A stretch of DNA of 8,008 nt from a virus (IMGVR_UViG_2695420427_000002), one strand, 5' to 3'. Numbered from the stretch's first letter, positions 675-1,023 are shown. Program-made: numbers and translations. Notes: a model not told the origin generated them from the sequence alone.

Positions 675-749
675 TGGAGCGGGCAGCGGGAATCGAACCC
701 GCATCATCAGCTTGGAAGGCTGAGGTAATAGCCATTATACGATGCCCGC
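675..749 (-). tRNA. tRNA-Gly (anticodon UCC), 75 nt with encoded CCA
   Basis: Reverse complement reads GCGGGCATCGTATAATGGCTATTACCTCAGCCTTCCAAGCTGATGATGCGGGTTCGATTCCCGCTGCCCGCTCCA. Acceptor stem GCGGGCA/TGCCCGC pairs fully, anticodon stem TCAGC/GCTGA with loop CTTCCAA, T-loop GGTTCGATTCC, 3' CCA. Confidence 0.9.
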
Positions 750-752
750 ATA

Positions 753-828
753 TGGTGCCGACTACCGGAATCGAACTGGTGACCTACTGATTACAAGTCA
801 GTTGCTCTGCCTGCTGAGCTAAGTCGGC
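753..828 (-). tRNA. tRNA-Thr (anticodon UGU), 76 nt with encoded CCA
   Basis: Reverse complement reads GCCGACTTAGCTCAGCAGGCAGAGCAACTGACTTGTAATCAGTAGGTCACCAGTTCGATTCCGGTAGTCGGCACCA. Acceptor stem GCCGACT/AGTCGGC, anticodon stem ACTGA/TCAGT with loop CTTGTAA. Only 3 nt separate it from the Gly tRNA. Confidence 0.9.
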
Positions 829-830
829 GC

Positions 831-907
831 TGGCCCACCACCGAGGACTCGAACCTCGCACCGTCAACTTAGAAGGTTGATGCTCTATCCGGATGAGCTA
901 GTGGTGG
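831..907 (-). tRNA. tRNA-Arg (anticodon UCU, reads AGA/AGG), 77 nt with encoded CCA
   Basis: Reverse complement reads CCACCACTAGCTCATCCGGATAGAGCATCAACCTTCTAAGTTGACGGTGCGAGGTTCGAGTCCTCGGTGGTGGGCCA. Acceptor stem CCACCAC/GTGGTGG (C1-G72), anticodon stem TCAAC/GTTGA with loop CTTCTAA, T-stem CGAGG/CCTCG. 2-nt spacer to the Thr tRNA. Confidence 0.85.
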
Positions 908-908
908 T

Positions 909-985
909 TGGTGGCCCTTGCTGGACTTGAACCAGCGACCTGGCGATTATGAGTCGCTCGCTCTGACCAACTGAGCTAAAGGGCC
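909..985 (-). tRNA. tRNA with CAU anticodon, probably Ile2-type (AUA-reading, lysidine-modified) rather than elongator Met
   Basis: Reverse complement reads GGCCCTTTAGCTCAGTTGGTCAGAGCGAGCGACTCATAATCGCCAGGTCGCTGGTTCAAGTCCAGCAAGGGCCACCA. Acceptor stem GGCCCTT/AAGGGCC, anticodon loop CTCATAA. The anticodon and T arms resemble enterobacterial ileX-type tRNA as I recall it. 1-nt spacer to the Arg tRNA. Confidence 0.85.
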
Positions 986-994
986 GGAGGCAGA

Positions 995-1023
995 ATAATA
1001 ACCATATGTCATCACATCTGCAA
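995..1023 (-). promoter_or_regulatory. Candidate sigma70 promoter for the tRNA array (TTGCAG-17-TATTAT)
   Basis: Minus-strand -35 TTGCAG (plus 1018-1023), 17-bp spacer, -10 TATTAT (plus 995-1000), placing the start a few nt upstream of the first tRNA 5' end at 985. Confidence 0.35.

Follow-up and report, generated by a model that had tools for sequence, protein, structure and literature searches.

A four-tRNA array behind the Q-like gene of an ipaH-carrying lambdoid prophage probably supplements tRNAs for codons rare in the host

Why should a prophage carry four tRNA genes, separated by only a few nucleotides (nt), between its late regulatory gene and its lysis genes? This question is raised by a viral stretch of DNA, IMGVR_UViG_2695420427_000002, which was analysed over its full length of 8,008 nt (hereafter the window) and for which an initial annotation, made from the sequence alone, had described a prophage-borne array of four complete tRNAs with encoded CCA ends. 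From codon usage, conservation and comparison with related phages, the cassette, Ile2(CAU)-Arg(UCU)-Thr(UGU)-Gly(UCC), probably supplements the tRNAs that decode codons rare in the host.

Four tRNA genes were called by ARAGORN at positions 675-985, all on the minus strand. The Rfam tRNA model matched all four at 56-70 bits compared to a gathering score of 29 (E 2e-10 to 3e-14), so that the folds were accepted and the isotypes assigned by the scanners. In the order of transcription, the genes and the spacers between them are as follows.

909-985, minus strand: tRNA 1, Ile2 type, anticodon CAU (ARAGORN; Rfam 70.5 bits)
908: spacer of 1 nt (A)
831-907, minus strand: tRNA 2 ("slot 2"), tRNA-Arg(UCU), reading AGA and AGG (ARAGORN; Rfam 56.4 bits)
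829-830: spacer of 2 nt (GC)
753-828, minus strand: tRNA 3, tRNA-Thr(UGU), reading ACA (ARAGORN; Rfam 69.8 bits)
750-752: spacer of 3 nt (TAT)
675-749, minus strand: tRNA 4, tRNA-Gly(UCC), reading GGA and GGG (ARAGORN; Rfam 64.9 bits)

CCA is encoded at the 3' end of every gene. The description of four complete tRNAs with encoded CCA and spacers of 1-3 nt was thus exact, and the range given for it, 675-1023, correctly spans the tRNAs and their promoter; the strand, which had been left unstated, is the minus strand.

A 501-bp stretch containing the array was found to be identical in the chromosome of E. coli FDAARGOS_944 (RefSeq). In this genome, the Prokaryotic Genome Annotation Pipeline (PGAP) lists tRNA-Ile, -Arg, -Thr and -Gly between a DUF1133 gene and the genes for a class II holin, rrrD and a lysis (Rz-like) protein, and the holin gene starts approximately 680 nt after tRNA-Gly. 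The left part of the prophage begins with an integrase gene beside ybhA, followed by cI/Cro-like, replication and nin-type genes. The right part contains terminase, head, tail and tail-fibre genes and ends with the type III effector gene ipaHb beside pgl; an ipaHb-bearing prophage points to a host of the Shigella or enteroinvasive E. coli type. Phage genes flank the array, as expected from the claim that it is prophage-borne, and it belongs to the late-regulatory part of a lambdoid prophage that carries ipaH and is of the Escherichia/Shigella type.

The codon usage of the prophage was compared to that of its surroundings, using 10,499 codons from annotated prophage genes and 6,899 codons from the chromosomal genes on either side (nadA to ybhA and pgl to ybhC). 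Odds ratios, prophage versus flanking host, were 7.3 for AGG, 4.2 for AGA, 3.2 for AUA, 2.4 for ACA and 1.9 for GGA (p 8e-8 to 7e-5), and these codons took enrichment ranks 1, 2, 4, 6 and 7 of 61, respectively. Ranks 3 and 5 were taken by CGA and CGG, two codons served by the argN(UCG) form of slot 2 that Shiga toxin (Stx) phages carry. Other A-ending codons (CUA, GUA, CCA, GCA, CAA, GAA and UUA) were not enriched, with odds ratios of 0.6-1.1, and therefore the effect is not a general AT bias. The AUA and AGA content was higher still in the cargo genes dedA and ipaHb. The proposal that the four anticodons match host-rare codons was borne out, since the cognate codons are enriched in the prophage compared to the flanking host genes.

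Sister copies of the cassette provided a second line of evidence. The C6-G66 pair of tRNA-Gly was replaced by U6-A66 in at least 38 sister loci, with U-G intermediates in only two and C-A intermediates in none, and in slot 2 of sister copies the A3-U70 pair was replaced by G3-C70. These compensatory stem changes indicate selection for tRNA structure.

The signals around the array, and the gene from which it is separated by a terminator, were located as follows.

995-1023, minus strand: cassette promoter candidate, TTGCAG (1023-1018), 17 nt, TATTAT (1000-995), a 9/12 sigma-70-like match
1073-1103, minus strand: intrinsic terminator after the Q-like gene, GC stem and U tract (-18.4 kcal/mol, z -5.7)
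1175-1729, minus strand: Q-like gene nearest the array (DUF1133, 356.7 bits; Phage_antitermQ, weak, 29.4 bits compared to a cut-off of 26)
397-416, minus strand: first downstream terminator-like hairpin, weak (-11 kcal/mol, z -2.1)
35-61, minus strand: second, stronger terminator-like hairpin, just ahead of the holin gene (-18.5 kcal/mol, z -3.4)

Both the placement downstream of a Q-position gene with its terminator and the single promoter candidate had been suggested initially, and both were recovered here. The promoter candidate ends 9 nt ahead of tRNA 1. When 25 distinct and otherwise divergent 70-nt upstream sequences were compared, both hexamers were present at the fixed spacing of 17 nt in 24, and the spacer between them and the sequence further upstream varied freely. 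The same promoter stands ahead of ileZ in an Stx2a phage. Conservation of the promoter supports the putative expression of the four tRNAs; their aminoacylation is likewise putative. The terminator hairpin at 1073-1103 was also conserved in PhiR47_1 and UMNK88, with differing loop and stem sequence. No consensus late promoter (pR') was found between the Q stop codon and the terminator, where a TTGACG overlaps the stop codon and has no acceptable -10 hexamer. An identity of the tRNA promoter with pR', in which the tRNAs would form a constitutive "6S-like" leader, was rejected because the promoter accompanies the cassette wherever it lies, be it after different Q families or after genes that are not Q at all.

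Codon supplementation by the cassette would proceed along steps of which RNase P cleavage, exonuclease trimming and the treatment of the CCA end are established parts of E. coli tRNA maturation. In the lysogen, the cassette's own promoter would drive a single tetracistronic precursor starting 2-3 nt ahead of tRNA 1, with the weak hairpin at 397-416 as a possible end of this transcript. During lytic growth, Q-modified polymerase would read through the terminator at 1073-1103 into the cassette. Because the spacers are only 1-3 nt long, the RNase P cut at each 5' end alone would suffice to separate the four tRNAs. The remaining 3' trailers of 1-3 nt would be left to exonucleases, RNase T or RNase PH for example, and addition of CCA would be unneeded because it is encoded. 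TilS would then turn C34 of tRNA 1 into lysidine, allowing AUA to be read, and the extra minor tRNAs would speed the decoding of AUA, AGA/AGG, ACA and GGA, both in the phage's own genes and in cargo such as ipaH.

Where the four genes come from was addressed by comparing each with phage and chromosomal tRNAs. tRNA 1 was identical to ileZ of the Stx2a phage at 74 of 77 positions, to ileY at 71, to ileX at 69 and to metT/metU at 54. Its acceptor stem, GGCCCUU/AAGGGCC, carries C4-G69 and C5-G68, the pairs that E. coli TilS requires (PMC1635315), and a sequence identical to it is annotated as tRNA-Ile by PGAP in FDAARGOS_944. Examination of the TilS elements had been proposed initially as the way to separate Ile2 from Met. 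On the basis of these two pairs, together with the high ileZ/ileY and the low metT identity, tRNA 1 is predicted to be a lysidine tRNA of the Ile2 kind that reads AUA, rather than a Met tRNA.

tRNA 2 was identical at 64 of 77 positions to argN(UCG) of Stx phages and at 58 of 77 to chromosomal argU. The scaffold is of the phage-specific argN type, with U15 and with an unusual C1-G72 pair in common with argN. Its anticodon loop, CUUCUAA, is the same as that of argU, and A20, C35 and G73, which we take to be identity elements of arginyl-tRNA synthetase, are all present. The anticodon stem is UCAAC/GUUGA, with G39 and no paired CNG motif. The initially recognised kinship to the ileZ-argN genes of 933W-type phages is therefore seen in both members of the pair.

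The other two genes resembled those of the host. tRNA 3 matched thrU at 74 of 76 positions, the differences being two D-loop changes, U16C and U20C, and its anticodon arm was identical to that of thrU, with C28-U-G30, C40-A-G42, A37 and U36AAUCA41 all retained. The C16/C20 variant was present in 28 of 127 sampled cassettes. tRNA 4 was identical to K-12 glyT over its whole length (75/75). The array is, as judged by sequence identity, a mosaic of a phage-lineage pair of the ileZ/argN family and two host-derived genes. For both of the latter, homology to the chromosome starts exactly at +1 and stops exactly at CCA76. This confinement to the mature tRNAs may reflect gene conversion of tRNA bodies or selection for minimal spacers, and it would also fit an RNA-mediated capture of mature tRNAs.

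The distribution of the cassette was determined through its Thr-Gly junction. A megablast search with the 83-nt junction was uninformative in E. coli genomes, because its two halves were joined across chromosomal tyrU. Two collections were scanned for the exact pattern of the Thr 3' end, TAT or TGT, and the Gly 5' end. The junction with its 3-nt spacer was found in at least 120 IMG/VR viral contigs and, among species-representative genomes, in those of E. coli (three copies), Shigella flexneri (three), Escherichia ruysiae and Citrobacter braakii. In 129 sampled junction loci, the architectures called by ARAGORN were Thr-3-Gly alone in 57, CAT-1-Lys(UUU)-2-Thr-3-Gly in 38 (with three more ending at a contig edge) and the architecture of the window, CAT-1-Arg(UCU)-2-Thr-3-Gly, in 19, besides a few odd forms. 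Given the commonness of junction and architecture, the tight spacing and the Thr-Gly extension, which had been called unfamiliar in the initial annotation, are normal for the module. Among 5,426 complete E. coli genomes, the family of Ile2 with slot 2 was present in 2,257, and the Arg(UCU) version of the window at 95% identity or more in only 14. The genes upstream of the cassette were unrelated to each other (a DUF1133 Q-like gene, classical Q, a helix-turn-helix gene and a DNA methyltransferase gene), and therefore the cassette behaves as a shuffled module.

Several observations were made on the sister cassettes themselves. Variation of the anticodon was seen in L018, L029-L032 and approximately 35 further loci, in L008 (2595-2671) and in L011 (1595-1671). 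In approximately 40 loci, slot 2 has the loop CCUUUAA and is called tRNA-Lys(UUU); in this type, C33 replaces the near-universal U33 and the discriminator is U73. In five loci, slot 2 has a shortened loop and is called "???" or Leu, and in two the thrU scaffold itself carries the anticodon UUU. This variation may represent anticodon switching or decay. The 57 loci with Thr-3-Gly only (for example L015, L021, L025, L026 and L034) have a hairpin of approximately 55 nt in place of tRNAs 1 and 2. Its ends are conserved (GGTTCYGAGGG ... CCYGARGAACC-A), it stops 2-3 nt before tRNA-Thr, and a -10-like GTATTAT stands ahead of it; a structured leader and a remnant are both conceivable. In E. coli CFSAN029787 (L010, 1852-1922), the fourth tRNA, annotated as tRNA-Val, is the glyT scaffold with anticodon UAC and A38G; its 3' acceptor strand has lost 1 nt, and its end reads CAA where CCA is expected. 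This "tRNA-Val" is probably a decaying copy annotated as functional. In the literature searched, no description was found of the slot-2 anticodon variation, of homology limited to mature tRNAs or of the 55-nt hairpin, and these three are offered as leads, not results.

Comparison with known systems placed the array among the tRNA clusters of lambdoid late regions. The features of such a cluster that can be read from sequence were all found: the position between Q and lysis genes, the phage type, bona fide tRNAs, homology to ileZ/argN and a codon bias. Phage 933W carries ileZ-argN-argO, and this type of cluster was compared by means of the annotated Stx2a_F349 record (AP012530). Like the array of the window, the Stx cluster lies downstream of a Q gene and a terminator, has a TTGCA-N17-TATTAT promoter 9 nt ahead of tRNA 1 and a 1-nt spacer between tRNA 1 and tRNA 2, and shares with it a closely similar tRNA 1 (74/77) and the same scaffold for tRNA 2 (64/77). 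In contrast, slot 2 has the anticodon UCU here and UCG there, argO is absent from the window, copies of thrU and glyT are present in it, and the genes downstream are holin and lysis genes instead of stx.

The cassettes of PhiR47_1, UMNK88, vB_EcoS-689R5 and phi467 have the same architecture, the same 1-, 2- and 3-nt spacers, the Thr and Gly genes and the promoter. They differ in that their slot-2 loop is CCUUUAA (Lys, C33), or slots 1 and 2 are missing, and in that their Thr D-loop is usually the unaltered thrU form. Phages SfI, Sf6, ST64T, PS3 and 21 carry Asn(GUU)/Thr(UGU) genes that are likened to the array by position, downstream of Q, and by the Thr(UGU) isoacceptor, with an ACA codon bias in SfI, whereas their partner tRNAs are others and the genes lie further apart, by 8 nt in SfI (PMC3636060).

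Since tRNAs 3 and 4 resemble thrU and glyT, the array could also be read as an ordinary chromosomal operon of the thrU-glyT family, not borne by a phage. Near-identity to a chromosomal tRNA operon, which had been named initially as an observation that would overturn the phage reading, holds for these two genes (75/75 for Gly, 74/76 for Thr; the Salmonella operon is 98.7% identical) and does not extend to the whole array. The gene order Thr-Tyr-Gly-Thr-tufB of the thrU-tyrU-glyT-thrT-tufB operon of E. coli and Salmonella was not found in the window, which is without tyrU, thrT and tufB. The chromosomal spacers of 8, 116 and 6 nt compare to a single 3-nt spacer here, and the flanks of the array share nothing with the chromosome. 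Moreover, phage genes flank the array, and the nearest relatives of tRNAs 1 and 2 are in Stx phages. The probability of this reading is negligible, and it is excluded by the context.

A different function for a phage-borne array would be protection against host defence, with the array replacing host tRNAs cut by defence nucleases (P2-OLD, AriB of PARIS, PrrC-type and colicin-like enzymes). In P2-lambda interference, the death of infected P2 lysogens results mainly from the removal, by P2-OLD, of the anticodon arm of the host's tRNA-Thr(UGU). The nuclease cleaves this tRNA at a paired CNG motif, A37 is required as well, and a resistant phage tRNA-Thr(UGU) rescues cells from it (PMC12445682). 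AriB cleaves tRNA-Lys(UUU), Thr(UGU) and Asn(GUU) within U36AAUCA41, directly before A41, and U39A abolishes cleavage (PMC12409363). The isoacceptors targeted in this way are those located after Q, namely Thr here, Lys(UUU) in slot 2 of approximately 40 sister loci, and Asn and Thr in SfI. No paired CNG motif is present in the slot-2 scaffold, in which G39 takes the place of the U39 needed by AriB, and 5 of 127 sister Thr copies have changes at 42-43 that disrupt the CNG motif and leave a shorter anticodon stem. In the window, however, tRNA-Thr has the anticodon arm of thrU and is hence presumably of the host-sensitive type. It is phage-encoded and of the same Thr(UGU) isoacceptor as known nuclease-resistant tRNAs (Lys/Thr/Asn of T5 against PARIS; phage Thr against P2-OLD), but unlike them it has no resistance-conferring changes in the anticodon stem: the CNG motif is unaltered, the stem is not shortened, and U39 and A41 are unchanged. 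An extra host-type tRNA-ThrU protects little or not at all against P2-OLD (PMC12445682), and tRNA-Gly is identical to glyT. Slot 2, whose scaffold would have the features of resistance, is Arg(UCU) here, an isoacceptor not singled out as a target (PMC12445682, PMC12409363). Protection from nucleases would explain one or two tRNAs at most, whereas the codon match covers all four, and as a general account of the array it is unlikely. A modular form of the same idea appears quite improbable for the array: slot 2 (C1-G72, G39, no CNG motif) would be a nuclease-proof chassis whose anticodon is rewritten to the attacked tRNA, as UCU (Arg) in the window, UCG (Arg) in the Stx phages and UUU (Lys) in numerous prophages of E. 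coli, and the C16/C20 Thr would buffer Toprim nucleases (P2-OLD, PARIS). Finally, the tRNAs could be neutral passengers, left behind by illegitimate recombination involving tRNA loci of the host or other phages and persisting because the Q-to-lysis gap, a moron site, tolerates insertions. The host origin of the Thr and Gly genes, the modular shuffling suggested by the unrelated upstream genes and the decay of members in several lineages would all suit such relics. A promoter conserved at a fixed distance, compensatory stem changes, a 1/2/3-nt architecture strictly retained across more than 60 loci and a specific codon match would not, and this explanation is very improbable.

Codon supplementation is therefore the reading retained for the array, and several points weigh against it. 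The codon match is correlative, and the host codon sample was small. Horizontally acquired DNA in general is richer in the rarest codons of its host. No terminator was found directly after tRNA-Gly. Moreover, sister cassettes have decayed: the fourth tRNA of CFSAN029787 is damaged, and slot 2 is uncalled in several genomes or has a broken D-stem or a shortened anticodon loop. It follows that some lineages can dispense with individual tRNAs.

Other elements were observed in the surroundings of the array. Between the terminator and the tRNA promoter is one Chi site (1034-1041, minus strand), which reads 5'-GCTGGTGG-3' along the direction of late transcription and is conserved at the corresponding position of PhiR47_1 and UMNK88. 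Protection of a linear genome end from RecBCD is one conceivable role, and chance occurrence is the alternative. On the other side of the array, approximately 35 nt 3' of tRNA-Gly, is a perfect palindrome, ACACAATATTGTGT (628-641, minus strand), which is partly conserved in other prophages; the fold around it was not exceptional (z -1.1). The 680-nt spacer from tRNA-Gly to the holin gene also contains an unannotated, near-perfect hairpin at 476-556 (minus strand), with a stem of approximately 27 bp (-49.9 kcal/mol, z -6.3). It occurred in 14 places in 9 of the 5,426 complete E. coli genomes, always with this type of prophage, and from these numbers its identification as a multi-copy mobile element was rejected. 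No Rfam family was found for this hairpin. A permissive Rfam search of positions 1-1200 returned sub-threshold matches only (isrK, 19.9 compared to 50 bits; Trp leader, 23 compared to 41 bits; miRNA precursors), which were dismissed as generic similarity of hairpins and terminators. The 674-bp tRNA-to-holin spacer, searched by megablast, had no match in the phage collection.

On the Q side of the array, the nin/Q module (orf95, DUF1367, YbcO, DUF1133 and, in part, hok/sok) is present in approximately three tandem copies at 1157-7200. The copies have two different junctions, near 2781/2783 and 5119/5120, share 300-nt stretches that are 100% identical, and include a third DUF1133 copy (5048-5470) that is truncated and fused. 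The closest genomes and viral contigs have a single copy of the module; the triplication is either genuine or was produced by the assembly. A type I toxin-antitoxin system, hok/sok, was recognised by an Rfam sok match of 117 bits at 6962-7137 and a hok/mok open reading frame at 6812-7024 (minus strand), and a second copy of the hok open reading frame lies within the duplicated module at 4814-5026 (minus strand). A gene for QueH, an epoxyqueuosine reductase that acts in tRNA modification, is located at 7195-7881 (minus strand; Pfam 220.6 bits), and tRNA genes are therefore combined with a gene for tRNA modification in one prophage.

The array itself is already known, as the identical sequence is annotated in RefSeq (FDAARGOS_944) and the class to which it belongs has long been described. 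It is an ordinary feature of lambdoid and Stx-type prophages, which carry tRNA genes for rare codons after Q. For annotation, the lessons are that Ile2, not Met, is the proper name for the CAT tRNA, and that copies of thrU and glyT in prophages need to be told apart from the chromosomal genes. Moreover, the variation of the slot-2 anticodon and the host-identical anticodon arm of tRNA-Thr(UGU) bear on the debate whether phage tRNAs serve codon supply or evasion of defence. The Thr(UGU) copy of the window is presumably nuclease-sensitive and is found in phages that are targeted by P2-OLD and PARIS. An anti-nuclease role is less likely here because this copy retains the sensitive anticodon arm of the host, and for this array the evidence favours codon supply over the evasion of defence.

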